A stretch of 64,000 bases of DNA from assembly GCA_038200435.1 (NCBI GenBank), contig JBBPXY010000015.1, forward strand, positions 6,396-70,395. The letters run 5' to 3'. This DNA comes from Solirubrobacterales bacterium (GTDB lineage Bacteria > Actinomycetota > Thermoleophilia > Solirubrobacterales > Solirubrobacteraceae). Under the pieces are notes generated by a model. It did no database searches, had not been told where the DNA came from, and saw only the letters and a list, made by a program, of their open reading frames with translations. Below are positions 24,665 to 49,144 of the stretch, piece by piece. The first letter of the stretch is position 1. Each line of letters starts with the position of its first letter. The position numbers and the translations under genes were made by a program.

Positions 24665-24678
24665 GGCCGAGTCCGCTG

Positions 24679-25476
24679 GTGCCGCGCCTTGGCGTCCTCG
24701 GTCACCCGGTCGCGCACAGCCGCTCTCCGGCTATGCACCGGGCCGCCTTCGTGGCGCTCGGCATGGACCGGGAGTGGAGATACCAGCGCCTGCCCGTCCC
24801 CCCGGAGCTGTTCAAGGAGACGGTCCGCGCGCTGCCGGCGGCCGGCTTCGTCGGCGCAAACGTGACGATCCCCCCCAAGGAGGCGGCCCTCGCTCTTGCC
24901 GATGAGGCGACGCCGGAAGCCCGTGCGATCGGCGCCGCCAACACCCTCAGCTTCACCCCCGACGGCCGGATCCACGCGGCCAACACCGACGCGCCGGGTC
25001 TGATCGCCGCCCTGCCGGAGCCTCCGGCCGGCCGCAGCGCACTCGTGCTGGGCGCCGGGGGCAGCGCCCGCGCGGTCGCCTGGGCCCTGCGTCACGCCGG
25101 TGCCGGAGAGGTGTCGGTGTGGAATCGCACGCCCGAGCGCGCACGCGCGTTGGCGGACTCGCTCGGGGTGCGGGCGGTCGGCCGTCTGGAGCCCGCCGAT
25201 CTGCTCGTCAACTGCACGTCTGTGGGCTTGGATGGGGAGGGCGGGGAACTCAAGATCGGCCCGCTGGGTGCCGATGAGCTCCTCGGGTTCAACAGCGTGA
25301 TCGATCTTGTCTACGGCACGACGGAGACGGCGCTCGTCTCGACGGCGCGCCGTCTCGGCGTGCCCGCAGTAGATGGGCTCGAGGTGCTCGTCCGGCAGGG
25401 CGCAGCCTCCTTCGAGCTGTGGACAGGCCGCACGCCGCCGCTCGATGCCATGCGGGCCGGGGCCCGGGACTCATGA
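24679..25476 (+). CDS. aroE: shikimate dehydrogenase
   Basis: Motifs HSRSPAMHRAAF, GANVTIPPKEAA, NTDAPG, VLGAGGSARAV. Confidence 0.9.
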   Translation: MPRLGVLGHPVAHSRSPAMHRAAFVALGMDREWRYQRLPVPPELFKETVRALPAAGFVGANVTIPPKEAALALADEATPEARAIGAANTLSFTPDGRIHAANTDAPGLIAALPEPPAGRSALVLGAGGSARAVAWALRHAGAGEVSVWNRTPERARALADSLGVRAVGRLEPADLLVNCTSVGLDGEGGELKIGPLGADELLGFNSVIDLVYGTTETALVSTARRLGVPAVDGLEVLVRQGAASFELWTGRTPPLDAMRAGARDS

Positions 25477-25639
25477 GCGACCCTTCCGATTCGAATCTCC
25501 ACCATCTGCGGCCCGTTCTCTCGGGGGAGCCGGCGCCGACGGATGGGGGCGCCACGCTCTCCGCCGGCCCTCCGACGGTCTTGGGCGGCGCCCTGATCCG
25601 GTTGCACTTCCGCCGGCACCTTTCGGTTCGGAGTCGGCG

Positions 25640-27577
25640 GTGCCTCCGCCTGCGCCGTTCAGTGAGCCCGAGGCGGTCGTGACCTCACCGTATGGCGAGT
25701 CGGAGTCGGCGACGGCTCTCCCCGCAGATCCCGTTGTGACGCCGCCTGCTGCGGACTACGGAGCACCGGATCCCGTGGCTACTCAGCCGGCCGCTCCGCC
25801 CGCAGTGATCACGCCGGCGCCGGTGTCCTACGGTGGCTCAGAGGCCGTGGCCTACGAGCCGGAAGCCGCCGATTGGGATGGCCTGACGCCGCCCTCACGC
25901 CGCGGCGGCTCGGGTCGGTTCCTGACCGACGTCCTCGTCGATCTCGGGTTCGTCGATAGCGCGCGGGTGGAGAGCGCCGTCGAGTCGGCCCGCCTCTCGG
26001 GCCGGCCGCCCGAGAGGATGCTGCTCGAGGCAGGAGCCATCACCCCCGACCAGCTCGCGCGAGGGACAGCTGAGCGCTTTGGCCTCGACCACGTCGATCT
26101 CAACACCTACAACGTCGACATGGCAGCCGCGAACCTCGTCAACACCGCGGCGGCGCGGCGCTACGAGGCCGTTCCCATCTCGTTGATCGGGAGCACCGCT
26201 GTGCTGGTCGCGATGGCCGATCCCTCCAACGTCCTCGCGGTCGACGATATCGCGATGCTCACGAGTCTCGAGGTGCGCCCGGCGGTCGCCTCGAGCGAGG
26301 ACATCGCCGGGCTCGTGATGCGACTCAACCGCTTCGAGGACGCGGTTCAGGAGGCTTACGAAGAGGAGCGCGACACCGAGAGCACCGCCGAGGTAGTCGA
26401 CCTGCAGGAGTCCGCCGACGACGCCCCGGTCGTCAAGCTCGTGCACTCGATCATCGCTCAGGCGGTCGAACGAGGCGCCTCCGACATCCACTTCGAGCCG
26501 GACGGCACCGACATGCGCGTGCGTCTGCGCATCGACGGCGTCATGTCGACCACCACCACGGTTCCCCGCCGCATGGTGGGCGGAGTGGTCTCGCGCATGA
26601 AGATCATGTCGGAGCTTGACATCGCCGAGCGCCGCATGCCCCAGGACGGCCGTATGGGGCTGAACGTCGACCACCGTCACATCGACATCCGCGTTGTCAC
26701 CCTGCCGAGCGTTCACGGAGAGTCCGTGGTCTTGAGGATCCTGGACAAGGACGCGGTGGTCCTCGAGCTCGACAAGCTGGGCATGCAGGACGAGGAGCGC
26801 GACCGCTTCCGGCGTGCCTTCAAGCGCTCTCACGGCGCTGTCCTCGTCACGGGGCCGACGGGCTCGGGCAAGTCGACCACGCTCTACGGGGCGCTCGGCG
26901 AGCTCAACACGCCCGAGAAGAACATCATCACGATCGAGGATCCGGTCGAATTCGAGGTCGACGGCGTCACCCAGGTGCAGGTGAACCCGCGCACGGGCCT
27001 GACGTTCGCCCAGGGCCTGCGGTCGATGATGCGCGCCGACCCCGACATCCTCATGGTCGGAGAGATCCGCGACCGCGAGACCGCGCAGATCGCGGTGGAA
27101 GGCGCCCTCACGGGCCACCTCGTCCTCTCCACGCTCCACACCAACGACGCACCGACGGCCATGACGCGGCTGACCGAGATGGGCATCGAGCCCTTCCTGG
27201 TGGCCTCCGCGGTCGACTGTGTCGTCGCCCAGCGCCTGGCCCGCACCCTGTGCCCGATGTGCAAGCGCCGAGTCATCATCTCTGCCGAGGTGCTGCGCGA
27301 CCACGGATTCAACGCCCAGCTCGACATCGAGGCCTACGAGCCCGCGGGCTGCGGGCGTTGCGGAGGCATGGGCTACAAGGGCCGGGTTGGGGTGTATGAG
27401 GTGATGCACGTCGACGACGAGATCCGCTCGATGATCCTGCGCCGCGCCGCCTCCGACGAGATCGCCGCCGCCGCCGCGCGCGCCGGGATGCGCCGCCTGC
27501 GCGAGGACGGCCTCGACAAGGTCAAGAAGGGCCAGACGTCGCTTGCGGAGATCGCCCGGGTGACCGGAGCTTCCTGA
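25640..27577 (+). CDS. pilB: type IV pilus assembly ATPase PilB (GspE family); true start uncertain
   Basis: ORF 25373..27577. It contains a T2SSE_N domain, Walker A GPTGSGKSTTL, GEIRD and a CPMC...CGRCGG tetracysteine. GTG 25640 is preceded by GGAG at 25629-25632. An upstream ATG at 25473 in another frame may be the real start, separated by a 1-nt indel (see findings). Confidence 0.9.
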   Translation: MPPPAPFSEPEAVVTSPYGESESATALPADPVVTPPAADYGAPDPVATQPAAPPAVITPAPVSYGGSEAVAYEPEAADWDGLTPPSRRGGSGRFLTDVLVDLGFVDSARVESAVESARLSGRPPERMLLEAGAITPDQLARGTAERFGLDHVDLNTYNVDMAAANLVNTAAARRYEAVPISLIGSTAVLVAMADPSNVLAVDDIAMLTSLEVRPAVASSEDIAGLVMRLNRFEDAVQEAYEEERDTESTAEVVDLQESADDAPVVKLVHSIIAQAVERGASDIHFEPDGTDMRVRLRIDGVMSTTTTVPRRMVGGVVSRMKIMSELDIAERRMPQDGRMGLNVDHRHIDIRVVTLPSVHGESVVLRILDKDAVVLELDKLGMQDEERDRFRRAFKRSHGAVLVTGPTGSGKSTTLYGALGELNTPEKNIITIEDPVEFEVDGVTQVQVNPRTGLTFAQGLRSMMRADPDILMVGEIRDRETAQIAVEGALTGHLVLSTLHTNDAPTAMTRLTEMGIEPFLVASAVDCVVAQRLARTLCPMCKRRVIISAEVLRDHGFNAQLDIEAYEPAGCGRCGGMGYKGRVGVYEVMHVDDEIRSMILRRAASDEIAAAAARAGMRRLREDGLDKVKKGQTSLAEIARVTGAS

Positions 27578-27847
27578 GCAGGGCCGCCGGCTTCGCCGGC
27601 TCGAAGTACGGGTGACAGGTACGCGGGCCTTACGTCGCCCCGGGCTCGCATCTGGGAAGGGGGGAAGGAGTGAACCGGCCTCGCAGATGGGGGGTGGTCG
27701 CACTTAACGACAGTGTGTGTCGCTAAAGGCAACCACCCCCTCTCGCTGCCCTCCCAAGATCCGAACGACGCCGCGGCCGATCCCGCGCCCTGCCACCTGC
27801 CACCTGAAGAGGGGTAACGGTCGGACCCTCAGCTGCCGATAGGACGC

Positions 27848-28930
27848 GTGATGAACATCGACTTCGCCGACATCCTCCTCGAGGTAATCGATCGCCGGGC
27901 CTCCGACCTGCACCTCACCGCAGGCTCTCCGCCGATGGTCCGCACCCGCGGCCGCCTGACTGCGCTCGAGGGATTCCCGCTCCTGACTCCCGCCGACACA
28001 CGCGAGATCGTCTACTCGATCCTCTCGAATGATCAGCGCCAGCGGCTGGAGACCAACTGGCAGCTCGACTTCGCCTACGCAATCCCGGGCCGGGCCCGTT
28101 TTCGCGTCAACGCCTACTTCCAGCGCGCCGCGTTGAGCGCCGCCTTCCGGCTGATCCCGTTCGAGCTCACCCCGCTCGAGGAGCTCGGCCTGCCGCCCGC
28201 GGTCATCGACTTCGCCAAACGCCCGCGGGGCATCGTCCTCGTCACCGGCCCGACGGGCTCGGGCAAGTCGACCACGCTCGCCTCGATCGTCGACCTGATC
28301 AACGAGACGCGCGAGGAGCACATCCTCACCATCGAGGACCCGATCGAGTTCCTGCACAACCACAAGCGCTGCATCGTCAACCAGCGCGAGATCGGCTCTG
28401 ACGCCCCCAGCTTCGCCGCCGGCCTCAAGGCCGCCCTGCGGCAGGATCCCGACGTGATCCTCGTCGGCGAGATGCGCGACGTCGAGACGATCGGCACCGC
28501 CATCACGGCGGCGGAAACGGGCCACCTCGTCTTCGCGACCCTGCACACGCAGGACACGCCGCAGACGATCGACCGCATCATCGACGTCTTCCCGTCTGAC
28601 CAGCAGTCGCAGATCCGCGTGCAGCTGGCGGTCGCCCTCCAGGGCATCGTCACCCAGCAGCTTCTCCCGACCGCCGACGGCGCCGGGCGCTGCGTGGCGG
28701 CCGAGGTCATGGTGCCCACCCCCGCGGTGCGCAACCTGATCCGCGAGGGCAAGACCCACCAGCTCTACTCGGTGCTGCAGACCGGCGGGGCCCAGGGCAT
28801 GCAGACCATGGACGCCGCTCTCGTTGGCCTGGTGCGCTCGGGCAAGATCACCCGCCAGATGGCCGAGGCCCGGTCGACGACGCCCGACGAGCTACGGCGA
28901 CTGCTCGGGTTCACCCCGATGGCGGCCTAG
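27848..28930 (+). CDS. pilT: twitching-motility retraction ATPase PilT
   Basis: Motifs ASDLHLTAGSPPMVR, GPTGSGKSTTL, ILVGEMRD, GHLVFATLHT. Length 360 aa. Confidence 0.93.
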   Translation: MMNIDFADILLEVIDRRASDLHLTAGSPPMVRTRGRLTALEGFPLLTPADTREIVYSILSNDQRQRLETNWQLDFAYAIPGRARFRVNAYFQRAALSAAFRLIPFELTPLEELGLPPAVIDFAKRPRGIVLVTGPTGSGKSTTLASIVDLINETREEHILTIEDPIEFLHNHKRCIVNQREIGSDAPSFAAGLKAALRQDPDVILVGEMRDVETIGTAITAAETGHLVFATLHTQDTPQTIDRIIDVFPSDQQSQIRVQLAVALQGIVTQQLLPTADGAGRCVAAEVMVPTPAVRNLIREGKTHQLYSVLQTGGAQGMQTMDAALVGLVRSGKITRQMAEARSTTPDELRRLLGFTPMAA

Positions 28931-28939
28931 GAACCGGCT

Positions 28940-30151
28940 GTGTCTGCATCGTTCGTCTTCAAGGCCGTCGACCTGGCCGGGATGCCGGCCCGGGGCGAGG
29001 TCGAGGCCGACTCCAAGTCGGCGGTCGCCGAGCAGCTGAAGTTGCGCGGCCTCATCGTCGTCGACATCCAGGCCAAGCACTCATCGAAGGAGCTCAACCT
29101 CGAGCTGTTCTCGCGGGTGAAGCCCGTCGAGCTCACGATCATGAGCCGGCAGCTCGCGACGATGGTCTCCTCGGGCATGACCTTGCTCCGCGCGCTGTAC
29201 GTGCTCGAGGCTCAGACCGAGGGCAAGAAGCTCAAGGAGACGCTGACCAAGGTCCGCAAGGACGTCGAGGCCGGACTGCTCTTCTCCGACTCCCTGGCCC
29301 GCCACCCCAAGGTCTTCAACCCCCTCTACATCGCGATGGTCCGCGCCGGCGAGTCGGGAGGCCTGCTCGAGAGCGCGCTCGAACGGGTCGCCGACCAGCT
29401 CGAGAAGGACGCCGCGCTGCGCCGCCAGGTGAAGTCGGCGATGGTCTACCCGAGCGTCGTCATCTCCTTCGCCGCCATCGTCCTGCTGGCCCTCGTGGCG
29501 TTCCTGGTGCCGATCTTCGCCAAGATCTTCAAGGACTTCGGTGGCAAGCTCCCTGCCCTCTCGCAGTTCACGGTTGACCTGTCGCACGGCCTGACGACCT
29601 ACTGGTTCGTCTACCTCCTGTGCGTCGTCGGTGTGGTGGTCGCGTTCTCGCGCTGGAAGAAGTCCTCGTGGGGCCGCCCGCAGTGGGACTCGTTCCGGCT
29701 GCGGGTCCCGTTCAAGATCGGTGACATCGTGCAGAAGGTCGCTCTCGCGCGCTGGGCCCGTACGCTCTCTTCGCTCACCACCGCGGGTGTACCCATCTTG
29801 CAGGCACTGGAGATCACGGGGCAGACGGCGGGCAACAACGTCGTCGAGAAGGTCATGGCCTCGGTGATCGACTCCGTCAAGGCAGGTGGAACGATCGCCG
29901 CCCCACTCAAGGACGCTCCCGTCTTCCCCGGCATGGTGCAGCACATGGTTGCCGTCGGCGAGGAAACCGGCGCGCTCGACCAGATGCTTTCGAAGATCGC
30001 GGACTTCTACGAGGACGAGGTCGCCGCGGCGGTGAAGTCGCTCACCTCCATCCTCGAGCCCGTGATGATCGTGGTCGTCGGGGCCGTCGTCGGGTTCATC
30101 GTCGTCTCGATGTACCTCCCGCTCTTCAAGATCTACGACCAGATCAAGTAG
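28940..30151 (+). CDS. pilC: type IV pilus platform protein PilC (T2SS F family)
   Basis: 403 aa with a duplicated T2SSF domain, three TM helices and the ending YLPLFKIYDQI. Confidence 0.92.
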   Translation: MSASFVFKAVDLAGMPARGEVEADSKSAVAEQLKLRGLIVVDIQAKHSSKELNLELFSRVKPVELTIMSRQLATMVSSGMTLLRALYVLEAQTEGKKLKETLTKVRKDVEAGLLFSDSLARHPKVFNPLYIAMVRAGESGGLLESALERVADQLEKDAALRRQVKSAMVYPSVVISFAAIVLLALVAFLVPIFAKIFKDFGGKLPALSQFTVDLSHGLTTYWFVYLLCVVGVVVAFSRWKKSSWGRPQWDSFRLRVPFKIGDIVQKVALARWARTLSSLTTAGVPILQALEITGQTAGNNVVEKVMASVIDSVKAGGTIAAPLKDAPVFPGMVQHMVAVGEETGALDQMLSKIADFYEDEVAAAVKSLTSILEPVMIVVVGAVVGFIVVSMYLPLFKIYDQIK

Positions 30152-30184
30152 CGGTCGGGCTCCGGGGCGCTAGCCTCGCGCGCC

Positions 30185-30373: not shown

Positions 30374-30446
30374 TCGAAGAGAACTTCCGCTGTGCCCTCA
30401 AGTGTTGGGCTGAGGGGTCGATATATGGGTTGTCCAGCACTTCTTA

Positions 30447-30527
30447 GGTGCCAAAGGCAAACCGTTCGTGAGGGCGGGACGCAAAGCCACGGATCTCCTT
30501 GAAAGGGGAGGAAGCCGGGTTGCCACC
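30447..30527 (+). promoter_or_regulatory. c-di-GMP-I (GEMM) riboswitch aptamer candidate in the pilA leader
   Basis: The sequence GGUGCCAAAGGCAAACCGUUCGUGAGGGCGGGACGCAAAGCCACGG...UUGAAAGGGGAGGAAGCCGGGUUGCCACC contains the blocks GGCAAACC, a GNRA-capped hairpin (GUGA), GGGACGCAAAGCC and the closing CCGGGUU.CC, as in the Vc2 aptamer as I remember it. The P1 helix is GGUG/CACC. Confidence 0.8.
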
Positions 30528-30559
30528 AGGGTTAGACGCGCTGTCGAGCCCGACGGCAT

Positions 30560-30612
30560 GGTTCTCCTAGGAGCTGGCGATCAATCCCATAGATCCGTTC
30601 CTAGGAGGAACA
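30560..30612 (+). promoter_or_regulatory. putative expression platform: anti-SD / SD pairing ahead of pilA
   Basis: GGTTCTCCTAGGA (30560-30572) is the near-exact complement, with one bulge, of TCCTAGGAGGAAC within GTTCCTAGGAGGAAC (30597-30611). That segment contains the AGGAGG Shine-Dalgarno 5 nt before ATG 30613. Confidence 0.55.
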
Positions 30613-31056
30613 ATGCTCACCAAGATCCGTAACCGCGCCGAGGACGAAAAGGGCTTCACCCTGATCGAGCTCCTCGTCGTGATCCTGATCATCGGCATCC
30701 TTGCCGCTATCGCCATTCCGTCGTTCATCAACCAGCGGGGCAAGGGGCAGGACGCCGCCGCCAAGTCTGACGTCAAGACGGCGCAGACCGCGATCGAGAC
30801 GTTCTACACCGACAACCAGAACTACACGACCGACAAGGCTGGCCTCGTGGCCATCGAGCCCGCTCTGACGAGCGTCAACGTGACGGTCACCCCTGGTACC
30901 GACAGCTACTCACTGTCCGTGCCTTCGAAGTCCGGCGCGCAGGGCGGCGGCACGTTCACCATCGTCCGGGCGACCAGCGGTGCGGTGACACGTACCTGCA
31001 CCAACGCCAACAAGGGCGGCTGCAAGGCGGCCGACGCCGACGGGAACATGTGGTAG
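30613..31056 (+). CDS. pilA: major type IV pilin
   Basis: The prepilin leader is MLTKIRNRAEDEKG, with cleavage before FTLIELLVVILIIGILAAIAIPSF (Glu at +5). There is a C-terminal Cys pair (C...C). Strong SD. Confidence 0.93.
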   Translation: MLTKIRNRAEDEKGFTLIELLVVILIIGILAAIAIPSFINQRGKGQDAAAKSDVKTAQTAIETFYTDNQNYTTDKAGLVAIEPALTSVNVTVTPGTDSYSLSVPSKSGAQGGGTFTIVRATSGAVTRTCTNANKGGCKAADADGNMW

Positions 31057-31086
31057 CAGCAGCTTCCTAGCGGAAACTGCTTTTTA

Positions 31087-31120
31087 GAGAGGCGGGCCTT
31101 CGGGCCCGCCTCTTTCGCGT
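31087..31120 (+). terminator. rho-independent terminator after pilA
   Basis: The hairpin AGAGGCGGGCC-TTCG-GGCCCGCCTCT is followed by TTCGCGTT. Confidence 0.8.
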
Positions 31121-31149: not shown

Positions 31150-31154
31150 CCCTC

Positions 31155-31577
31155 ATGTGCGCACTTCGAGCGGCCGATACCAGGAGCGTGCTTCCATCGC
31201 TCCGCCAGTCCTTCTCCGCCGGCTCCGTCATCCTGACCCTCGCCGCCGGCTTCTCACTCGTCTCCACCGAGCACGCGCTCGGACTCGACGGCACCGCCCA
31301 GCGCGACGCGCGGGCCGGCCTGACGGCGATGGAGGAGTTCTACATCCGCCACCAGACCTACAACGCCGATCCCACGCAGCTGGCGCAGACCGACCCGAGA
31401 CTTCAGGGCGCCAACGTCCTCACCGCCAGCGGGACTGCCGAGACTTACGTGGTGTCTGTCACGTCGCGATCTCCGCAGCACACGGTCTTTACGCTCACCC
31501 GGGGCGCCAACGGCACCGTGACCCGCGGCTGCGACACGCCCGGTCGTGGCGGGTGCCCGCTCGCGGGCACGTGGTAG
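31155..31577 (+). CDS. degenerate pilin paralog (PilA-like globular domain, N-terminal helix shortened)
   Basis: The C-terminal 90 aa align by eye with PilA: TAMEEFYIRHQTYNAD...TVFTLTRGANGTVTRGCDTPGRGGC against TAIETFYTDNQNYTTD...GTFTIVRATSGAVTRTCTNANKGGC. The N-terminus AGFSLVSTEH lacks about 20 residues of the hydrophobic helix and the Glu at +5. Confidence 0.5.
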   Translation: MCALRAADTRSVLPSLRQSFSAGSVILTLAAGFSLVSTEHALGLDGTAQRDARAGLTAMEEFYIRHQTYNADPTQLAQTDPRLQGANVLTASGTAETYVVSVTSRSPQHTVFTLTRGANGTVTRGCDTPGRGGCPLAGTW

Positions 31578-31671
31578 CCCGGGCGCGCGCCAGGCGGCCA
31601 TCCGTCGTTCCGGTCCCATCATCGGTCCGGTAACACCCCGCTGGGGCTCAAGTGCCCGTGCCGAGGAGTCG

Positions 31672-35589: not shown

Positions 35590-35698
35590 CGGGGCGGTAC
35601 CCGGCGCGCCGCGGGAGCACGATGCCAATGTGGCCAAGCCGCGGCCCAGAAGCCCGGTGTCGCTCAAGATCAGGCGCCGAGAGGCCGAGTAGTCACCT

Positions 35699-37894
35699 AT
35701 GGATCGCTGCCGCCTGCACGAAGAGAGCGGCTTCAGCATGGTCGAGGTGCTCGTCGCCGCCGTCGTGCTGCTCATCGGCATCACCTCGACGTTCGTGCTC
35801 ATCAGCTCCTCCAACGCCGGTATCAACCGCGCGCGAGCCCGGGAGGGCGCCACCAACCTCGCCCGGGAGACGCTCGAGGACACGCGCAACGTGAACTACT
35901 CGAAGATCGGACAGGCCGGATGGGCCGACTCGATCATGACCGGCCTGTCGGGGCGCACGGGAGCGGTCACCTCGCCGAACGCCAACACATCGCAGACGAC
36001 CGTGGTGCGTAGGGGAGTCACCTATGCGGTGAGCACCTCGTGGTGCTCCGTCGACGACTCGAAGGACAACTTCGGAGTGCATGCCGCCTCCACCGCCTGG
36101 TGCTCGGACAGCATCCAGGCCGACACGAAGGACCCGCAGCCGGAGGACCTCAAGCGCGTATCGGTCAACCTCAGCTGGACCGAGCGCGGGCGCACCGGCA
36201 GCGTGCAGCAGGTGGCCACCTTCGGCGCGGGCGGCGCGGCGCTCGGACCGGTGCTCACCAACCTGCAAATCACCACGCCGACGGTGGCCAACCCGACGGC
36301 CCCGGTCATCACGGCCAATCCGTCAAGCGGCAACGCAACCTTCACGGCGACGGCCGCGGGCGCGGATGACGTGAAGTTCAGCATCGACGGCACCGAGCAG
36401 GCCTCGGGGGTCGTGAAGAACTCCGGCGGGACGTGGACGTTCACGTGGCCCGTCAACACGCTCCGGGACGGCACCTACCAGATCAGCGCCGTGGCGGTCG
36501 ACACGCTGGGCGTCCGCGGGCAGTCCCGGACGCTACCGGTCAGGCTGGCCCGCGGCTGGCCCGTCGTGCCAGCGAACGTCACGGGTGGCTACAACTACGT
36601 CTGGGTCGGTGGTGTCAAGACACTGGTGGTCGAGGGACAGTGGGACGCCAGCCCCGACGGAAGCGTCACGGGCTACGAGCTCCTGGATGGCTCGGGCACG
36701 GTCTGCGGCGGCTCGGGCGACGTGTCGCTCGCGTGCGTCGACCTGACCCCGCCCACATCGGGTTCGAGCTGGTACTACCTCCGGACCTGGTACCGCGATG
36801 CGTCCAATGCGCTCGCTTACGTCACCGTCCCCTACTACCTAACGGCGCCCGCGCAACCGTTCCCGGCCACGTACTCGTGGACGACGGGCACGTCGATCTC
36901 CCGCACCAACTGCTACGGCGGCACGGGCGTCGTGCAGGGCGACGCGCCCTCCACCTTCGCCTCCGGCGCCCAGGCCACCTTCGGCAAGGTCAACGGCAAC
37001 ATCGTGGCTGGTTGCCTCCCTCCCTTCACCGGCGCGGTGAGCAGCACCGCGGGCACCGGCACGGGCACGTTCACCGGCTACTTCAAGAACACCGGCTCGA
37101 AGATCTGCTACCTGCAGGTCGGCGCCTATCCCAACAAGTCGCTGGCCACCAGCAACGCGGTCGAGGGCAACGCGGTCGGCGGCTCGCCCACCTACATGGC
37201 GGTGCCGAAGACCACCACGCCGACGCTCCTGACCTACAACTACAACGTCGTCGCCAAGAGCTTCGCCGCGGGCGATCAGCTCACGACGATCGTCAGCGGC
37301 TTCAGCCCGGGCACGCTCAACAGCGGCGACTGCTCGGGCACCACCTTCTACTACAACACGAGCACCTACCAGTCGAGCCTGGTGATCCCGATGACGACGG
37401 GCGGGAGCACCCCGTTGGCCGTGCCCGCCGCGCCCACCGGCCTCGCGCCCGGGAGCGGCGGTACGACTCTCACCTGGACGGCTCCCGCGAGTAGCAACCC
37501 GGCGGTGGACTTCTACCGCATCTACCGGGACGGCACGAACTACACGAACCGCGTCGACACGGCGGACGCCACCTCCACACCGGTCGGGACGGCGACTTCG
37601 GTGGGCGCGACCACCGTCACCGTGCCGAGCACGAGCGGGTTCGCCGCCGGGCAGAGCGTCTCCGTCGACACGGCGGCCAACCAGGACAACGTGACGATCC
37701 AGTCGGTGTCGGGCACCACCATCACCTTCACCACGGGGCTGGCGCATGCCCACGCCACGGGCGTCCCGGTGGGCGTGCGCACGATCAGCTGGACCGACAC
37801 CAACACGGGTGGCTCCACGCACACCTATGCCGTCACGAGCGTATCTGCGCCGCTCGCCGAATCCGCCTTCACCCCGATCGTGGGGCCGCTGTGA
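35699..37894 (+). CDS. giant minor pilin (PilV-like prepilin N-terminus, 731 aa, Ig/FN3-like C-terminal modules)
   Basis: MDRCRLHEESG is cleaved before FSMVEVLVAAVVLLIGITS (class III signal, Glu at +5). The C-terminal segment LTWTAPASSNPAVDFYRIYRDG is FN3-like. Confidence 0.8.
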   Translation: MDRCRLHEESGFSMVEVLVAAVVLLIGITSTFVLISSSNAGINRARAREGATNLARETLEDTRNVNYSKIGQAGWADSIMTGLSGRTGAVTSPNANTSQTTVVRRGVTYAVSTSWCSVDDSKDNFGVHAASTAWCSDSIQADTKDPQPEDLKRVSVNLSWTERGRTGSVQQVATFGAGGAALGPVLTNLQITTPTVANPTAPVITANPSSGNATFTATAAGADDVKFSIDGTEQASGVVKNSGGTWTFTWPVNTLRDGTYQISAVAVDTLGVRGQSRTLPVRLARGWPVVPANVTGGYNYVWVGGVKTLVVEGQWDASPDGSVTGYELLDGSGTVCGGSGDVSLACVDLTPPTSGSSWYYLRTWYRDASNALAYVTVPYYLTAPAQPFPATYSWTTGTSISRTNCYGGTGVVQGDAPSTFASGAQATFGKVNGNIVAGCLPPFTGAVSSTAGTGTGTFTGYFKNTGSKICYLQVGAYPNKSLATSNAVEGNAVGGSPTYMAVPKTTTPTLLTYNYNVVAKSFAAGDQLTTIVSGFSPGTLNSGDCSGTTFYYNTSTYQSSLVIPMTTGGSTPLAVPAAPTGLAPGSGGTTLTWTAPASSNPAVDFYRIYRDGTNYTNRVDTADATSTPVGTATSVGATTVTVPSTSGFAAGQSVSVDTAANQDNVTIQSVSGTTITFTTGLAHAHATGVPVGVRTISWTDTNTGGSTHTYAVTSVSAPLAESAFTPIVGPL

Positions 37895-38784
37895 TCCGGC
37901 GCCTGCAAGCGGAGGACGGGCTCATGCTCACCGAGATGCTCGTCGGCATGGTCATGGCGATCATCATCTTCGGCGCGACGCTCGGGGCGCTCGACATGTT
38001 CTTTCGCCAGAGCGCGCGCACCGACAAGCAGAGCCAGGCTCAGGACTCGGCCCGCTCCGCCGTCGACCGCATGGCGCGCCTGATTCGCGACGGTGTCGGG
38101 ACCACGGGCGGACCGGTGGAGCAGAGCGGCGCCTACGACATCGTCTTCCTCGCTCCCAGCGCGAACGTCTCTCTGGTCAACAACCCACAGGGGCTCGTGC
38201 ACACCCGCTACTGCATCGATGCGAGCACCCTGAGCAACGAGAAGCTGTGGGTGCAGACGGTGCCCTACAGCTCGACGACTCAGCCGGCGCCCCCGGGGAC
38301 CGGTGGCTGTCCCGACCCATCGGCAGCGTGGACCGCGAAGCGGCTCATCGCCCGCAACCTCGTCAACCGCCAGCGCTCGCCCGCGGCTCCGCTCTTCAAC
38401 CCCTCGACCGACGCCTCGGGGGCAGTGACCGACGTCGCCTTTGACGCCTGGGTCGACGCCGACCCGACCGGCGGCGCGCCGGCCAGCGAGCTCCAGAGCA
38501 GCGTCACCCTGCGCAACCTCAACCACGCCCCAACCGCCACGATCACGTGCCAACCGACGGGTAACGGGCACGTCATCTGCGATGCCTCGGGGTCAACCGA
38601 CGCCGACAGCCAGACGCTGTCCTACGCCTGGCAGATGGACGGCGCCACATTGGCCGGCCAGACCGGCTACAGCCTGGACAAGCCGGGCCTCGTCTCAGGC
38701 GGTACCCATACGTTCACGGTCACGGTGACCGACCCCGGCGGAGCGAGCTCCAGCGCGACGAGCCCGGCGGTGACGCTCCCATGA
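37891..38784 (+). CDS. minor pilin (PilW-like) with C-terminal PKD domain
   Basis: MIRRLQAEDG is cleaved before LMLTEMLVGMVMAIIIFG (Glu at +5). The C-terminus DASGSTDADSQTLSYAWQMDG...HTFTVTVTDPGG is PKD-like. It has an ATGA/GTGA-type overlap with the upstream gene. Confidence 0.75.
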   Translation: MIRRLQAEDGLMLTEMLVGMVMAIIIFGATLGALDMFFRQSARTDKQSQAQDSARSAVDRMARLIRDGVGTTGGPVEQSGAYDIVFLAPSANVSLVNNPQGLVHTRYCIDASTLSNEKLWVQTVPYSSTTQPAPPGTGGCPDPSAAWTAKRLIARNLVNRQRSPAAPLFNPSTDASGAVTDVAFDAWVDADPTGGAPASELQSSVTLRNLNHAPTATITCQPTGNGHVICDASGSTDADSQTLSYAWQMDGATLAGQTGYSLDKPGLVSGGTHTFTVTVTDPGGASSSATSPAVTLP

Positions 38785-40049
38785 GGTCGCGGCTCGCCCA
38801 CGAGGACTCGGGATCGGTCCTTGTCGCCGCGGTGCTCGTCTTGATGATCACGCTCGGCCTCGGCGTGGCGCTCGCCGCAACGGTCAACACCCAGGTCCAC
38901 GCCGCCAAGTACGAGCGCAACCGCGAGTCGAGCTTCACCCTCACCGAGGCGTCCCTGAACGCCCAGGCCCTGCAGCTCGGCCGCCAGTGGCCGACGCGGG
39001 CGACGCCGGCTCCGAGCTCGTGCGACCCAAGCGTGAACAACGCGGCGTGTCCGCTCAGCACCGCGATCACGAACGGCTACACCGCGAACGACTACAACTC
39101 GAGCTGCCCGCGCGCGCCGAGCACCCCGATCTGGAAGACGCAGGTCCGCGACAACGTGAACGGCGAGAAGTACTGGTCCACGGCGGTCAACTCCCGCGGC
39201 AGCTACGACGGCGCCAACGACGGAACGCCCACGGGCGACGGGGCGGTCTGGGTCCGTGCCACCGCCACGGTCCAGTGCCGGGTTCAGTCGATCGTGACGC
39301 TCGTGCGCAACGACCCGCTGCCCGGCATCGACTTCCCGCAGAACGTCATCACCGCGAACTTCTTCCAGACCACCAACCAGGGTCGCAAGGTGCTCGTCGA
39401 CACGCTCGGCTCCTACGCGCAGCCTCCCTCGAGCCGGCCGGGCCCGTCCGGGCAGCCCGCGGCGATCACCCTGCGCTGCACCGGCGTCACCAAGTGCGCG
39501 GACTACAACGCCTCCAAGGGCCAGGTGCAGCCGCCGAAGGTAATCACCGGCAGCCAGACCAGCACCAGCTCGCTGTCGCCCAGCCAGCTCCTCCAGCTCA
39601 AGGCCCAGGCCGTGGCCGCCGGCACCTACTACGCCACGGGCAGCTGTCCGGCGATCACGGCCGCTGGACTGAGCAGCGCGAACGGCGCGCCGGTCTACGT
39701 CGAGGGCCCGTGCAACATCTCGGTCAACAGCAACACCGTCATCAACAGCGCGCCCGCCCCCGGGGCGCTGATCATCGTCAACGGAACGTTCAGCATCAGT
39801 GGAAGCGCGTACTTCTACGGCTTGTTGTACGCGGTGAACGCCCAGGGCTCGACGTCGAGCGTGGTCAACGTGACCGGCAACGGCAGCATCCAGGGCCTCG
39901 TGTCGGTCGACGGAGCGGGCGGAGTGACCGTGGGCGGCAGCGCCACCGGGATCGTCTACGACTCCAAGGCCGGACACCTGCTCAAGGGCAGCGCCGGTGC
40001 TACGCCCGCCAAGGGCACGTGGCGCCAGCTGCCGGCGAACACCCCGTAG
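38781..40049 (+). CDS. PilX-like minor pilin / pilus assembly protein
   Basis: The N-terminus MRSRLAHEDSGSVLVAAVLVLMITLGLGVALAATV...ERNRESSFTLTEASLN is typical of the PilX N-terminal domain. Length 422 aa. Confidence 0.65.
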   Translation: MRSRLAHEDSGSVLVAAVLVLMITLGLGVALAATVNTQVHAAKYERNRESSFTLTEASLNAQALQLGRQWPTRATPAPSSCDPSVNNAACPLSTAITNGYTANDYNSSCPRAPSTPIWKTQVRDNVNGEKYWSTAVNSRGSYDGANDGTPTGDGAVWVRATATVQCRVQSIVTLVRNDPLPGIDFPQNVITANFFQTTNQGRKVLVDTLGSYAQPPSSRPGPSGQPAAITLRCTGVTKCADYNASKGQVQPPKVITGSQTSTSSLSPSQLLQLKAQAVAAGTYYATGSCPAITAAGLSSANGAPVYVEGPCNISVNSNTVINSAPAPGALIIVNGTFSISGSAYFYGLLYAVNAQGSTSSVVNVTGNGSIQGLVSVDGAGGVTVGGSATGIVYDSKAGHLLKGSAGATPAKGTWRQLPANTP

Positions 40050-40082
40050 CGTCCTGCGCGCGCCGTAGGTTCCTTTCAAGGC

Positions 40083-40832
40083 ATGTTTGTCGCGCTCACC
40101 GCCCTGCTCGGGCTGATCATCGGCTCCTTTCTCAACGTGGTGGTCTACCGGCTGCCGCGCGGTGAGTCGCTCTCGCACCCCGCGTCGCGCTGCCCTGGGT
40201 GCGGCACGCCGGTCAAGCCCTTCGACAACGTACCGGTGATCTCGTGGCTCGTGCTGCGCGGCCGCTGCCGCACGTGCCGCACGCCGATCTCCGCGCGCTA
40301 CCCGCTTGTCGAGGCCGGCACGGCGGTCCTCGCGGTCGCGGTGGTGCTCCTCAGGGGCGCCGATCGCGACGCGTGGCTCGGCCTTGCGTTGGTGCTCGTG
40401 CTCGTGCCCGTGGCGCTCATCGATCTCGACCACCGCATCATCCCCAACAAGATCACGCTGCCCGCGGCGATCGCGGCGATCGCGATTGGCGCGCTCACGC
40501 GGCCGGAGCACCTGATCGAGCAGCTCATCGCCGGTGCGGCGGCCGGCGGGTTCCTGCTGCTCGCGGCGCTCGCCTACCCGCGGGGGATGGGGATGGGCGA
40601 CGTTAAGCTCGCGGGCGTGATGGGGCTGTTCCTGGGGCGTGACGTGGCGCCCGCAATGCTCGTCGCGCTGTTGTCGGGCACGATCGTCGGCGCGGTGATC
40701 ATCGCCCGCAAAGGCACCAAGGAGGGCCGGAAGACCGCGGTTCCGTTCGGCCCGTTCCTGGCTCTCGGCGGCTTGGTGGGCCTGCTCGCAGGCGCGCCGA
40801 TCGTCACCTGGTACCTGGACACGTTCGTTTAA
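40083..40832 (+). CDS. pilD: prepilin peptidase (A24 family)
   Basis: Motifs IGSFLNVVVYRLP, CPGCG...CRTCR, DLDHRIIPN, GMGDVKL. About 7 TM helices. Confidence 0.92.
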   Translation: MFVALTALLGLIIGSFLNVVVYRLPRGESLSHPASRCPGCGTPVKPFDNVPVISWLVLRGRCRTCRTPISARYPLVEAGTAVLAVAVVLLRGADRDAWLGLALVLVLVPVALIDLDHRIIPNKITLPAAIAAIAIGALTRPEHLIEQLIAGAAAGGFLLLAALAYPRGMGMGDVKLAGVMGLFLGRDVAPAMLVALLSGTIVGAVIIARKGTKEGRKTAVPFGPFLALGGLVGLLAGAPIVTWYLDTFV

Positions 40833-41090
40833 GAGGCTGTCTCAGAACCCGTTCGCGGCCGCGGGTAACCGTTCCGCGGCGCCGGATCACCACGTCTGAT
40901 CCTCGCCGATGCGCTGCATCGTCTGCGGTCAGCCGTGACGCCCGGCATCCACCGCCCGGTCGTCCCGCGCCTCACGACCGGTTTCAAGACACCCCCTTGG
41001 AGCAAGCCACGCCCGAAAAGGGCTCAACCTTCAGGCGCACCGCGCCGATAGAGCGGGGGCAGGGTCGATCGACGACCCCCACTTGCCACC

Positions 41091-42152: not shown

Positions 42153-42997
42153 AGGCCGTAAACCTCATCCCGGTCGAGGAACGCCGCGGCGGAGCCAGCG
42201 CCGCGCGCACGCCCACGTACGGCGTCCTCGGCGTGCTCGGTCTGCTCCTCGTCGCGGTCACGGCGTCGGTCGTCCTCTCCAACCAGATCGGCGAGCGCAA
42301 GGCCGACCTCGCCCGCGAGCAGGGCAGGGCGGCAGCAGCCCAGACGCGCGTCGAGAGCCTGAAGCCCTACGTCGCTTTCTCCGAGCTTTCGCAGAAGCGC
42401 GTCCAGACCGTCACCCAGCTCGCCCAGACCCGCTTCGACTGGGAGGGCACGATGCACGATCTCGCCCGTGTCGTCGGCGGCAACGTCTGGATCACCAACT
42501 TCACGGGCACTGTCGCTCCCGGCGTCGATATCGGAAGCGCCGGCAGCGGCGGCGACACGGCCGCCGTGCGCTCGTCTCTATCCGACCCCGCGGTCGAGCT
42601 CAGCGGCTGCGCGACCTCCAACGGCGAGGTCGCCCGGTTCGTCTCGCGCCTGCGCGCCATGAACAGCGTCACGCGGGTGACCATCGTCGGCGCGACGAAG
42701 AGCGACACGGCGACTCCGCAGAGCGCCCCGGCGCCGGGTGGCTCGCCCGCGGCCGGCGGCGGTTCCAGCAGTTCCGGTGGTGACTGCACCGAGGGGAGCG
42801 ACCGCTACCCCGTCTTCGGCCTCGTGATCTTCTTCAAGCCGCTCCCCGGTGGCGCGGCCGTGCCCGCCGCGGCCGGAGCCGCTCCGGCGACCACCCCCGC
42901 CCCGGCCACGTCGGCCAAGCCCGGCTCATCGGCGACGAGCACCACGCCGGGGCCCGCCGGTACCTCTTCCCCCGCTTCAGTCGGAGGCTCCAAGTGA
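42149..42997 (+). CDS. pilN: PilN (fimbrial assembly) with Ala/Pro/Ser-rich C-terminal extension
   Basis: MKAVNLIPVEERRG is followed by a single TM helix (VLGVLGLLLVAVTASVVL) and a coiled-coil segment. Confidence 0.8.
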   Translation: MKAVNLIPVEERRGGASAARTPTYGVLGVLGLLLVAVTASVVLSNQIGERKADLAREQGRAAAAQTRVESLKPYVAFSELSQKRVQTVTQLAQTRFDWEGTMHDLARVVGGNVWITNFTGTVAPGVDIGSAGSGGDTAAVRSSLSDPAVELSGCATSNGEVARFVSRLRAMNSVTRVTIVGATKSDTATPQSAPAPGGSPAAGGGSSSSGGDCTEGSDRYPVFGLVIFFKPLPGGAAVPAAAGAAPATTPAPATSAKPGSSATSTTPGPAGTSSPASVGGSK

Positions 42998-43776
42998 CCA
43001 CGCGTGATCGCATCGTCATTCTCGTCTTGGTCGCTGCGGCCGCCGTGGCCGGGTTCTGGTTCCTCGTGTTCGAGCCCAAGCGCGCCGAGGCGAGCAAGCT
43101 CAGCACCGAGCTGAGCGCCGTGCGCCAGAAGGAGGCCACCGCGCAGCAGGACATCGCCACCGGACTCGCGGCCCGCCGCGCCTACGGTCACAACTACGCC
43201 GTCATCGCGCGTCTCGGCGAGGCCGTGCCCGCCGACGACAACGGGCCGTCGCTCGTCTTCCAGCTCGACTCAGCGGCCAAACGCTCGGGCGTCGACTTCC
43301 GCTCGCTCAAGCTGAGCGCCGGGGCGGGATCGCCCACGGCTGCCGCCGCGGCCGGGAGCAAGCCGGGCGCGGCAGCCGCGCCGACCCAGGCTGCCTCCGC
43401 GACTTTGCCCCCGGGGGCGTCGGTCGGGCCGGCGGGCTTCCCGACGATGCCCTTCCAGCTCGGTTTCGACGGCTCCTTCTTCCACATGTCCGACTTCTTC
43501 CGCCGGCTCGACGCCTTCGTCGACGCCAACTCCAGGCGCGTGTCCGTGAGCGGCCGCCTGCTCACGATCAACGGGCTGTCGCTGACCGCGAGCCGTCATG
43601 GCTTCCCGGCCGTGAAGGCGACGGTGGCGGCCAACGCCTACCTCGTGCCGGCCGATCAGGGCAGCACGGGCGGCGCGACGCCGACCGCGCCGAGCGCGGC
43701 CGGGTCCAAGCCCACGACTTCTTCTTCGACGGGGACCACTCCCGCTCCGGCCACCGCGACCCCGCCCACACGATGA
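42994..43776 (+). CDS. pilO: PilO-like pilus assembly protein
   Basis: An N-terminal TM helix (IVILVLVAAAAVAGFWFLVF), a coiled coil and a C-terminal domain. Its position after pilN fits PilO. Confidence 0.7.
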   Translation: MTTRDRIVILVLVAAAAVAGFWFLVFEPKRAEASKLSTELSAVRQKEATAQQDIATGLAARRAYGHNYAVIARLGEAVPADDNGPSLVFQLDSAAKRSGVDFRSLKLSAGAGSPTAAAAAGSKPGAAAAPTQAASATLPPGASVGPAGFPTMPFQLGFDGSFFHMSDFFRRLDAFVDANSRRVSVSGRLLTINGLSLTASRHGFPAVKATVAANAYLVPADQGSTGGATPTAPSAAGSKPTTSSSTGTTPAPATATPPTR

Positions 43777-44675
43777 AGTTCTTCCGCAACGTCTATGAGG
43801 ATCTGGTCGAGCGCAAGCTGCTTCCGCTCGCCGTACTGCTCATCCTCGCCCTGGTGGCGGTTCCGCTGACGCTCTCGAAGTCGATGCCGATTCCGCCGGC
43901 CGTCGCGGCGTCGAGCGCGGCGCCGGCGCTTGATGTCCCGTCGGCTGTCCCGGCCGTGAGCCTCTCCTCGCCCGACAGCTCGAGCCGCCTCGACCACCTG
44001 GGCGCCCTGAACCCGTTCGAGCAGCGCCACAAGCAGCGCGTGCAGCCGCTCAAGCCAGCGAGCGCGCCGACCACGACCGCCGCCGCCCAGCCCGCCCAGC
44101 CGAGCTCACCCGCGGCGTCGTCCTCGGGTGCCTCGATCGGAGCGGCGGCGTCATCTCCCTCGGCGTCCTCTCCCTCGTCGTCCGGTCCCGTCTCCTCGCC
44201 GTCGCCCAGCGCCGGCCCGTCCCCGCACAGCTCGCGCCCGCCTGCCCGTCATACGGTCAGCTCGCTGCAGGTGCGCTTCGGTCCGCTCGGGCATACGGGA
44301 GGCCGCCATGGGATCGATCGCCTCGCGCCGCTTCCCGACAGCGAAAGCGCGGCCATCATCTACCTGGGGATGCTGCGCGATCACAAGACCGCTTCCTTCC
44401 TCGTTTCCTCCGATGCGCACGCTGAAGGTGACGGGCGCTGCCTGCCCAGTCCCAGCAACTGCCAGAAGGTCTACCTGCGCGCCGGTCAGACCGAGTTCTT
44501 CGATCAGACGAACTCGCACGGTGGGGTCACTCAGTATCAGCTCGATGTCATCGGCGTGGCGAAGCGGGCCGTGGCCTCGGCGCGGACTGCCCGCCGGATG
44601 AGCGCCCGCGTCTCGCGGCGCGGCCAGCGGCTCGAGCGTCACTCCGCCGCCTTCCGCGCGCCCGCTCCCCGCTAG
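43773..44675 (+). CDS. membrane-anchored PilP-like protein (last gene of the pilus locus)
   Basis: A TM helix (LLPLAVLLILALVAVPL), an NPF motif (GALNPFEQ), a long Ser/Pro/Ala linker and a C-terminal beta-rich segment IIYLGMLRDHKTASFLVSSD...YQLDVIGV. Confidence 0.5.
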   Translation: MKFFRNVYEDLVERKLLPLAVLLILALVAVPLTLSKSMPIPPAVAASSAAPALDVPSAVPAVSLSSPDSSSRLDHLGALNPFEQRHKQRVQPLKPASAPTTTAAAQPAQPSSPAASSSGASIGAAASSPSASSPSSSGPVSSPSPSAGPSPHSSRPPARHTVSSLQVRFGPLGHTGGRHGIDRLAPLPDSESAAIIYLGMLRDHKTASFLVSSDAHAEGDGRCLPSPSNCQKVYLRAGQTEFFDQTNSHGGVTQYQLDVIGVAKRAVASARTARRMSARVSRRGQRLERHSAAFRAPAPR

Positions 44676-49120: not shown

Positions 49121-49144
49121 CCAGAGCGAGGACTTTCAAACGAG

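Follow-up and report, generated by a model that had tools for sequence, protein, structure and literature searches.

An apparently secretin-less type IVa pilus cluster of a Solirubrobacterales bacterium with a predicted class I c-di-GMP riboswitch, WhiG-type promoter motifs and a conserved PKD/Ig accessory gene

Type IVa pili (T4aP) have barely been studied in Actinomycetota. According to a 2019 review, the actinobacterial pili investigated until then were of the Tad/Flp type, and modular pilins are described there as widespread (PMC6916266). In Rubrobacter, of the sister class Rubrobacteria, the sigma factor WhiG is antagonised by RsiG together with cyclic di-GMP (c-di-GMP) and likely controls the type IV pili (T4P); single-motif RsiG and WhiG have also been reported for the Thermoleophilia (Schumacher et al. 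2021, PMC8325347). In C. difficile, where a c-di-GMP riboswitch precedes a major-pilin gene, c-di-GMP also co-regulates surface adhesins (PMC6366702). The T4aP cluster described here is from a member of the Solirubrobacterales, an order of the class Thermoleophilia. It extends from 25.4 to 44.7 kb of a 64-kb stretch of DNA (the window; ~70% G+C, source habitat given as soil), and its open reading frames (ORFs) are on the + strand.

The cluster encodes an apparently secretin-less T4aP machine with the retraction ATPase PilT in a high-GC Gram-positive lineage. With a probability of about 0.72, we read it as a cluster of several transcription units under two layers of c-di-GMP control, in which a PKD/Ig-repeat exoprotein and a pilin paralogue (PilA2) would be co-regulated accessories and a zinc-finger miniprotein an independent neighbour. 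The locus and its more than 80 relatives share the position between aroE and aroC, multiple sigma-28/WhiG-type motifs and, in many lineages, a class I aptamer in the pilin leader. Three aspects appear to be new, namely the predicted combination of a class I aptamer and a WhiG-type promoter motif on one pilin leader, the putative class-wide layout of multiple promoters and leaderless starts, and the apparent PKD/Ig accessory that adjoins the minor pilins. The original prediction had stated that the riboswitch, the PKD modules and the miniprotein together belong to no known T4P architecture. This was overstated, as the riboswitch, modular pilins and c-di-GMP/WhiG control have precedents (PMC6366702, PMC6916266, PMC8325347).

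Relatives were collected by a PilC-anchored scan with one genome per species. The scan yielded 80 loci, 79 of which are titled as actinobacterial (Thermoleophilia-type) metagenome-assembled genomes (MAGs). Loci are labelled with L and a number (e.g. L020); further loci (e.g. L086–L090) were fetched later. The closest PilC proteins are from Solirubrobacteraceae MAGs (69% identity).

The major-pilin gene and its leader are arranged as follows:
30445..30534, + strand: aptamer of the c-di-GMP-I clan (Rfam match 30447-30528; also our own covariance model)
30555..30617, + strand: candidate expression platform, a hairpin whose anti-Shine-Dalgarno (anti-SD) arm pairs with the AGGAGGA SD sequence and the pilA AUG
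30613..31056, + strand: pilA, major pilin (Pfam N_methyl and ComP_DUS; TIGR02532)
31087..31114, + strand: probable pilA terminator, a 12-bp GC-rich hairpin followed by UUUCGCGUUCU (z = -3.45)

The Rfam match lies 85 nt upstream of pilA and belongs to RF03167 (c-di-GMP-I-GGC; 62.1 bits, gathering score 59, E 3e-12). The riboswitch that had been proposed ahead of PilA is thus matched above the gathering score, with c-di-GMP as the predicted ligand. A second member of clan CL00126 also exceeds its own gathering score and is hidden by the clan filter. With our own covariance model, which was built from 25 pattern-matched aptamers, the window aptamer scores 86 bits. The window and the 80 loci contain 28 aptamers, and five more are present in the later loci. 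All 28 are located 3–160 nt upstream of an ORF of the GFTLIELLVV type (major pilin); the prepilin site of PilA in the window reads MLTKIRNRAEDEKG/FTLIELLVV (KG/FTLIELLVV; the slash marks the cleavage site). Covariation supports the P1/P1a/P2 architecture of the c-di-GMP-I aptamer: pairing holds in 98.4% of the alignment cells, compensatory changes occur in 13 of 23 pairs and none of 500 shuffles reaches the observed score, in an alignment that was fitted to the covariance model and therefore somewhat favours structure. L013, L032, L036, L038 and L081 each contain two riboswitch-pilin units in succession, with a separate aptamer per unit, and those of L038 are near-identical duplicates. The link between riboswitch and pilin is recurrent across the class, not universal.

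The name of the best family raises the alternative that the RNA is a c-di-GMP-I-GGC variant which senses another ligand, so that the connection to c-di-GMP would be wrong. RF03167 does exceed its gathering score, but the window aptamer reads GACGCAAAGCC, with an A at the site where the consensus of the GGC model has a G (GACGCGAAG in the consensus, GACGCAAAG in the window). The cmscan alignment has a mismatch at exactly this column, and all 25 aligned Thermoleophilia aptamers have this A. Conservation in the window and the 25 relatives extends to the G that precedes GCAAACC and to the C of UGCC; the window contains the segments AAAG-GCAAACC, GACGC-A-AAGCC and UUG-C-C, which hardly vary among the relatives. 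These G, A and C positions presumably correspond to G20, A47 (the intercalating base) and C92 of Vc2, and we take 'GGC' to denote positions 20, 47 and 92, a meaning suggested by the Rfam consensus. The replacement of the intercalating A by G, which would distinguish the GGC variant, is absent from the window aptamer. Together with the second clan member above its gathering score, this makes a different ligand very unlikely. We infer a canonical c-di-GMP pocket in an aptamer that resembles the seed sequences of the GGC variant.

The aptamer of L022 (15357-15443) has an A (AAAAAAGCAAACC) where the others have the equivalent of G20. We take this change to be the one tied to GEMM-Ib riboswitches responsive to 3'3'-cyclic GMP-AMP (3'3'-cGAMP).

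The hairpin that covers the SD sequence and the AUG has a z score of -3.5 in the window, and the same hairpin is present in L086 (z = -3.2). No U-tract (intrinsic) terminator was found in the pilA leader. Most likely, the candidate switch acts on translation through the SD/AUG hairpin. It may be of either sign; class I c-di-GMP switches work in either direction in other bacteria (PMC6366702). Between aptamer and SD sequence (30573-30600 and orthologous leaders of several families), a conserved GGAGCUGGCR is followed by a C-rich, G-poor tract. This element fits a sigma-54 site poorly; a Rho utilisation site and a protein-binding site are possibilities. The probable terminator is located directly 3' of pilA and is kept in L086, a relative with 65–81% identity. 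Since a conserved hairpin terminator ends pilA, the riboswitch would gate pilA alone, and riboswitch, pilA and terminator would form a separate, apparently monocistronic unit.

The second layer concerns promoter motifs of the sigma-28/WhiG type. The motif consists of a -35 element TAAA, a spacer of 15 or 16 nt and a -10 element GCCGATAA; up to three mismatches were allowed when it was counted across loci. The following motifs were found in the cluster:
25250..25277, + strand: motif for pilB, TCAA-N16-GCCGATGA, within the 3' end of aroE
27815..27842, + strand: motif for pilT, TAAC-N16-GCCGATAG, -10 element ending 8 nt before ATG 27851
30398..30424, + strand: motif for aptamer and pilA, TCAA-N15-GTCGATAT, 20 nt before the aptamer
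31153..31180, + strand: motif for pilA2, TCAT-N16-GCCGATAC, 7 nt before GTG 31188
31648..31675, + strand: WhiG-like motif for the PKD/Ig gene, TCAA-N16-GTCGATGG, leader of ~32 nt to GTG 31708
35664..35691, + strand: motif for the gene of a 731-aa (amino acid) minor pilin, TCAA-N16-GCCGAGTA, 7 nt before the ATG
41024..41051, + strand: motif for pilM, TCAA-N16-GCCGATAG, leader of ~39 nt

The positions of these motifs are conserved. The pilB motif is found exactly 199 nt before the aroE stop codon in 23 related loci, five of which have a perfect TAAA-N-GCCGATAA, and the pilT motif of relatives often lies 5–9 nt before the start. Among 32 aptamers checked, 27 are preceded by the motif at a fixed distance of either 16–20 or 38–42 nt; one of the 32 motifs is perfect (L027) and seven have a single mismatch. 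The motif of the PKD/Ig gene is conserved in L086 and L087. The footprint ahead of the 731-aa pilin gene provides the best single evidence for the predicted promoters: TCAAG-N15-GCCGAGTA-N7/8-ATG (-10 form GYCGAGTA) is kept in the window, L086, L087, L088 and L090, and the spacers have diverged. Across the loci, the motif precedes pilT in 43 of 74, pilM in 21 of 51, pilD in 11 of 29 and the 731-aa pilin gene in 6 of 10 cases. The corresponding counts for control genes are 0/30 (alaS), 1/41 (aroE), 1/18 (pilN), 0/33 (pilO), 0/7 and 0/6 (the genes of a 297-aa and a 422-aa minor pilin). Several motifs end 7–8 nt before a start codon and therefore imply leaderless mRNAs.

The genes had been described as mostly overlapping by 4 nt. 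Only 6 of the 15 junctions are of this kind, and the remaining ones are gaps of 9–270 nt with promoter-like motifs and the terminator. The cluster thus probably comprises about seven short transcription units and not a single operon. These would be pilB; pilT-pilC; riboswitch-pilA-terminator; pilA2; the PKD/Ig gene; the 731-, 297- and 422-aa pilin genes with pilD; and pilM-pilN-pilO with a gene for a 300-aa protein.

Co-transcription of the whole cluster, as assumed in the original prediction, would mean a single 19-kb operon in which the riboswitch gates everything downstream and the PKD protein and the miniprotein are integral parts of the pilus. The genes do lie on one strand throughout, and six junctions overlap. 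L086 repeats the order PilC, miniprotein, riboswitch, PilA, PilA2, PKD and 731-aa pilin, and the miniprotein gene adjoins the pilin cluster in all 14 loci examined. The conserved 12-bp hairpin straight after pilA and the positionally conserved motifs ahead of pilA2, the PKD/Ig gene, the 731-aa pilin gene and pilM speak against this arrangement. The miniprotein gene has a -10 element of its own (TAnnnT), has unrelated genes between it and the pilins in L081 and L084 and is inverted in L003. The PKD gene is missing from 80 Thermoleophilia pil loci. A single operon is therefore quite unlikely, and several separate units are preferred.

A number of points weigh against the reading as a multi-unit cluster with two c-di-GMP layers. 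The motifs of the window deviate from the consensus by 2–4 mismatches, and orthologous sites in relatives reach 0–1; the published motif search in Rubrobacter allowed two mismatches (PMC8325347). The loose motif is common in the GC-rich DNA of the window, with 31 matches compared to 7.9 expected, many of them intragenic. A shuffle test of the loose pattern is uninformative, as codon composition inflates the number of matches. Because the loose motif is so frequent in this DNA, the case for the promoters rests on positional conservation. Neither whiG nor rsiG is present in the 64-kb window. The promoters, the leaderless starts and the terminator are predictions. Seven related loci carry pilins without the aptamer, and the RNA layer is therefore dispensable. 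When the leaders of 14 orthologues were folded under constraint, the shift in SD accessibility between aptamer-formed and aptamer-blocked states was inconsistent.

A further point concerns pilB. ATG 25473 overlaps the aroE stop codon (ATGA), and its N-terminus 'NLHHLRPV' resembles the PilB proteins of relatives; the conserved PilB N-terminus MSDPSDSNLHHLRPV is read from this ATG. The frame read from there ends at 25682, and the long ATPase ORF (25373-27577) is in another frame, so that the reading frame of PilB breaks between 25473 and ~25700. An assembly error could account for the break, as could a genuine frameshift or an internal (GTG) start. If the break is real, it could impair pilus assembly.

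The motif geometry of the pil genes recurs elsewhere in the window. A gene for a membrane diguanylate cyclase with a GGDEF domain is located at 9277-10358 on the + strand, with the likely real start at ATG 9312. A TAAG-N16-GTCGATAA motif lies 7 nt before this ATG, which corresponds to the leaderless geometry of the pil genes.

An unannotated 236-aa ORF (17962-18708, + strand; ATG 17998) encodes a transmembrane helix and a thioredoxin-like C-terminal region. TAAC-N16-GCCGATCA precedes its ATG by 8 nt, and the ORF may be another member of a WhiG-type regulon.

The genes of the machine were assigned by Pfam and NCBIfam profile searches of the window ORFs:
25473..27577, + strand: pilB, extension ATPase (Pfam T2SSE 1.8e-138, MshEN 5.5e-16)
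27851..28930, + strand: pilT, retraction ATPase (TIGR01420 PilT/PilU, 491.4 bits, cutoff 319)
28940..30151, + strand: pilC, platform protein (two Pfam T2SSF domains, 5.4e-66)
40083..40832, + strand: pilD, prepilin peptidase (A24_N_bact 2.3e-35, Peptidase_A24 1.7e-17)
41091-42152, + strand: pilM (PilM_2 1.5e-25)
42149-42997, + strand: pilN (PilN 2.4e-6)
42994-43776, + strand: pilO-like gene (T2SSM 5e-6, 27.2 bits, slightly below the cutoff of 27.8)
43773..44675, + strand: conserved gene for a 300-aa protein (N-terminal transmembrane helix, low-complexity linker, NPF motif, beta-rich C-domain)

These matches bear out the list of pil genes from PilB to PilO on one strand. The core set PilB, PilT, PilC, PilD, PilM and PilN is above the family cutoffs, except for PilB with TIGR02538 (625 bits, slightly below the cutoff of 675.65), and the PilO-like protein is just below. 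pilM, pilN, the pilO-like gene and the 300-aa gene are connected by consecutive 4-nt overlaps. A PilQ secretin had been noted as missing, and indeed no secretin family matched the pil ORFs or the other large ORFs of the 64-kb window. The machine belongs to the monoderm T4aP and does not represent a new class.

PilA matches Pfam ComP_DUS (31.8 bits, cutoff 27.3) and weakly ComGC, and T4aP are generally known to drive transformation in several phyla. A machine that serves mainly as a competence pseudopilus for DNA uptake, and not as a pilus for adhesion or motility, is nevertheless highly improbable. PilT and PilM/N/O are hallmarks of T4aP and not of ComG, as are large modular minor pilins that carry Ig, PKD and FN3 domains. 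Furthermore, the ComP_DUS match spans the generic pilin fold, and there are no comEA- or comEC-like genes among the annotated ORFs of the window.

The MshEN domain of PilB (25922-26340, residues ~184–322) offers another possible contact to c-di-GMP. In both 24-residue motifs the RLG...Q residues, which we take to be those of MshEN's motifs for binding c-di-GMP, are mostly replaced. The NCBIfam c-di-GMP motif scores 20.8 bits on PilB, with a cutoff of 38. Direct binding of c-di-GMP by this domain is doubtful.

The 300-aa protein had been labelled PilP-like. This label is not supported by family or fold searches: the protein has no lipobox and no Pfam or NCBIfam match, its C-domain gave no fold match in the PDB below E 0.05, and PilP and GspC are absent among the 50 listed Foldseek matches. 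Identity with PilP was rejected on these grounds (no lipobox, no PilP or GspC-HR fold match). The C-domain has two invariant Cys residues, the protein has 30 homologues, and residues 160–290 are modelled by AF2 (AlphaFold2) with a pLDDT (per-residue confidence score) above 90.

The pilin paralogue, the exoprotein and the minor pilins are encoded between pilA and pilD:
31188..31577, + strand: pilA2 (GTG start), pilin paralogue, 129 aa
31708..35589, + strand: PKD/Ig exoprotein gene (GTG start), 1293 aa (1305-aa ORF, 31.5-35.6 kb; Pfam)
35699..37894, + strand: 731-aa modular minor pilin (SG/FSMVE, N_methyl, Big_13 Ig domain, FN3-like C-terminus)
37891..38784, + strand: 297-aa minor pilin (DG/LMLTE, C-terminal PKD domain)
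38781..40049, + strand: 422-aa minor pilin (SG/SVLVA, without Glu5, GspK/PilX type)

In the PKD/Ig protein, a signal peptide is accompanied by six PKD domains, six Ig-like repeats (AIR9/SCAB type) and a ~125-aa C-terminal domain (PKD_4 2e-83, IG_AIR9 4.6e-15). The claim of a giant Sec-dependent PKD protein co-transcribed with the pilus genes thus stands with respect to the Sec-type signal peptide and the repeats; co-transcription is not supported, as the gene has a conserved motif of its own. Tat export was considered on account of an SRRLAWL motif and rejected, as the RR is not conserved in orthologues.

None of the 80 species-representative Thermoleophilia loci contains the gene. In the Thermoleophilaceae L020 and L021, pilA is followed by 731-like, 297-like and 422-like genes and pilD with nothing between. 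A protein search revealed full-length orthologues, one of which (P0121) is 100% identical. In five contigs, two of them from the same organism, the PKD gene is located directly upstream of the same minor-pilin genes, with identities of 48–100%. The orthologue of L086 (71%) has the gene order described above, from PilC to the 731-aa pilin. Those of L087, L088 and L090 (48–49%) lie directly upstream of the 731-aa and then, as far as the contigs allow, the 297- and 422-aa orthologues. An ABC transporter, and not pilA, lies upstream of the PKD gene in L087. A homologue with 38% identity in L089 is not beside pilin genes. Absence of the gene and the miniprotein from related loci had been named as evidence of accidental insertion. 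The PKD gene is indeed absent from the 80 loci, but it is conserved in one sub-lineage, and the miniprotein is restricted to Solirubrobacterales. The PKD/Ig gene is a conserved addition in one sub-lineage and not a one-off accident.

A second, independent PKD protein is found beside pilins in L083, another Solirubrobacterales MAG. The gene of this 801-aa PKD-repeat protein (8408-10813; P_proprotein and PKD) has the miniprotein gene on one side and three pilin genes on the other.

PilA2 aligns with PilA over residues 25–140 only, at 33% identity. It has neither a prepilin leader nor the first half of alpha1N (G/FTLIE), so the original assignment as a pilin paralogue holds for the homology but not for the prepilin N-terminus. 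Its orthologue in L086 shares 81% identity and, counted from the first in-frame ATG, has the same length of 129 aa. Given this conservation, PilA2 is not a pseudogene.

The three minor pilins of 731, 297 and 422 aa, as predicted, have prepilin-type N-termini. The 731-aa protein matches PilV weakly (NCBIfam). Its C-terminal extension of ~370 aa (residues 365–731) occurs only in lineages that bear the PKD gene. The PKD module claimed for a minor pilin was found in the 297-aa protein, slightly above threshold (K319L-like_PKD, 28.3 bits, cutoff 27); the N-terminus of this protein gives only a weak match to the HpsC pseudopilin. Orthologues of the 297-aa pilin are present in L020, L021, L081, L088 and L090. 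The 422-aa pilin has no Pfam or PDB sequence match, and its orthologues in L088 and L090 are 65–67% identical. PDB sequence searches with the 422-, 731- and 300-aa proteins gave nothing meaningful, and a metagenome scan with the 422-aa pilin returned two spurious loci only.

That pilA2 and the PKD/Ig gene are unrelated cargo in a variable spot, with an ordinary secreted surface protein as product, is a serious alternative whose chances are only somewhat short of even. The region from pilC to the pilins and minor pilins is a hotspot in relatives, where an acyltransferase, a glyoxalase and genes on the opposite strand are found. The L089 homologue is encoded away from pilin genes, and the PKD protein lacks a pilin signal as well as a PilY1 domain, and neither PDB nor Pfam links it to pilus proteins. 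In addition, PKD-repeat proteins are extremely common (3046 matches at E 1e-10 or better). On the other hand, the adjacency to the 731-, 297- and 422-aa genes is kept at 48% protein identity even where an ABC transporter lies upstream (L087), the PKD gene shares its WhiG-type motif with the pil genes, including the copies in L086 and L087, the extension of the 731-aa pilin coincides with the PKD gene, and L083 has a different PKD protein in a comparable place.

For the PKD/Ig protein and PilA2, the preferred reading is that of a co-regulated accessory of the cell surface or of adhesion; their genes appear to have entered the minor-pilin operon at its 5' end, with the same type of promoter. A physical role of the PKD protein in the pilus is possible. 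More specifically, it might be a pilus adhesin, analogous to PilY1 with another fold and docked to the priming complex of the 731-, 297- and 422-aa pilins, under a feed-forward c-di-GMP gate; this we regard as unlikely. The protein would then be made from the same WhiG-type regulon and might dock via the ~370-residue extension of the 731-aa pilin, with PilA2 as a possible partner. c-di-GMP would act twice, through sigma and anti-sigma factor on all parts and through the cis riboswitch on the major pilin. The conserved pairing of the PKD/Ig gene with the minor pilins is a candidate route by which secretin-less pili could gain accessory adhesins.

The miniprotein is encoded between pilC and the pilA leader:
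30171-30176, + strand: TAGCCT, a -10-like element 8 nt before the miniprotein ATG
30185-30373, + strand: miniprotein, 62 aa, with two CxxCxGxG motifs

Cys and Gly of both motifs are invariant across 67 aligned homologues. In total there are 354 homologues, and the named sources are Conexibacter/Solirubrobacteraceae. A TAnnnT element is found 7–9 nt before the start in every locus examined, and in 14 of 14 loci the gene is on the 5' side of the pilin genes. The top Foldseek match is the Cys-rich (CR) domain of DnaJ (1exk; probability 0.96, E 0.07) with a model of mean pLDDT 70, and BSD2, a stand-alone zinc-finger protein of DnaJ-like type, is also among the fold matches. Pfam DnaJ_CXXCXGXG scores 20.2 bits, with a cutoff of 32.7. 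DnaJ and BSD2 share the CxxCxGxG motifs with the miniprotein; the latter differs from DnaJ in having one putative zinc centre (two motifs instead of four), only 62 aa and no J domain. The description as a DnaJ-type zinc-finger miniprotein is consistent with the two motifs, whereas membership in the pil operon is not supported, given the separate TAnnnT element and the variable synteny. The miniprotein is probably an independently transcribed neighbour with a leaderless promoter of housekeeping type and not a pil component.

The cluster is flanked by the following blocks:
20350-25476: aroE side, alaS-ruvX-mltG-aroE
44708-47391: aroC side, aroC-aroK/aroB

The upstream neighbours alaS-ruvX-mltG-aroE recur in most related loci. 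Other Actinobacteria presumably have a lone prepilin peptidase gene at this position between aroE and aroC, and this would point to an ancestral pil locus there.

Downstream of the cluster, a c-di-AMP riboswitch of the ydaO type (48961-49135, + strand; 47.3 bits, gathering score 38) precedes an ORF whose product has a peptidoglycan-binding domain. This ORF (48914-50413) must begin past the aptamer.

The two proposed layers of c-di-GMP control would be connected as follows. In the first layer, WhiG blocked by RsiG and c-di-GMP would set the whole regulon at transcription initiation; the sigma factor is named here from the type of motif, and its identity is likely rather than certain. This regulon would take in the GGDEF cyclase gene (9312-10358), which has the same promoter geometry. 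In the second layer, pilA, which is needed in bulk, would receive a further c-di-GMP input in cis. The class I aptamer with its G20/A47/C92 pocket would most likely act on translation through the hairpin that buries SD sequence and AUG. If RsiG-c-di-GMP antagonises WhiG in this lineage, the pilin gene reads c-di-GMP twice, in trans when transcription starts and again in cis through its leader; whether one layer would strengthen or counteract the other depends on the sign of the riboswitch.

Among known systems, the PilY1/PilC tip adhesins of Gram-negative T4aP resemble the PKD/Ig protein in being large non-pilin proteins with a signal peptide, encoded beside core minor pilins. The PKD/Ig protein differs in that it lacks the PilY1/Neisseria_PilC beta-propeller (Pfam), has its own promoter motif and occurs in one sub-lineage.

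The modular pilins PilB and PilC of S. sanguinis reportedly carry vWA and lectin modules. As a group, modular pilins combine a class III signal and a pilin module with extra domains (PMC6916266). The 731-aa protein (Big_13 and FN3-like) and the 297-aa protein (PKD) of the window fit this description. The grafted domains differ from those of S. sanguinis, and the host is an actinobacterium.

The Rubrobacter (RsiG)2-(c-di-GMP)2-WhiG system is similar in that a deep-branching actinobacterial T4P cluster has several internal TAAA/GCCGATAA promoters. The same promoter type precedes a GGDEF gene here, and genes for diguanylate cyclases and phosphodiesterases belong to the Rubrobacter regulon (PMC8325347). 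In the lineage of the window, the motifs are degenerate, typically TCAA...GYCGATNN, and whiG and rsiG are not in the window. Riboswitches do not appear in the Rubrobacter paper (PMC8325347), and the cis aptamer on pilA would be an extra layer.

The closest parallel to the pilA leader is C. difficile pilA1 with Cdi-2-4 (PMC6366702), a monoderm T4aP without a secretin, as the present one appears to be, whose major-pilin gene has a c-di-GMP riboswitch in its 5' leader. Cdi-2-4 is a class II aptamer and an ON switch, whereas the aptamer described here is of class I (GEMM-I clan). The pilA leader described here has no U-tract terminator; a hairpin that sequesters the SD sequence and the AUG is the candidate platform instead. 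Furthermore, pilA of the Solirubrobacterales bacterium has its own probable terminator, is apparently monocistronic and is preceded by a leader with a sigma-28/WhiG-type motif in front of it.

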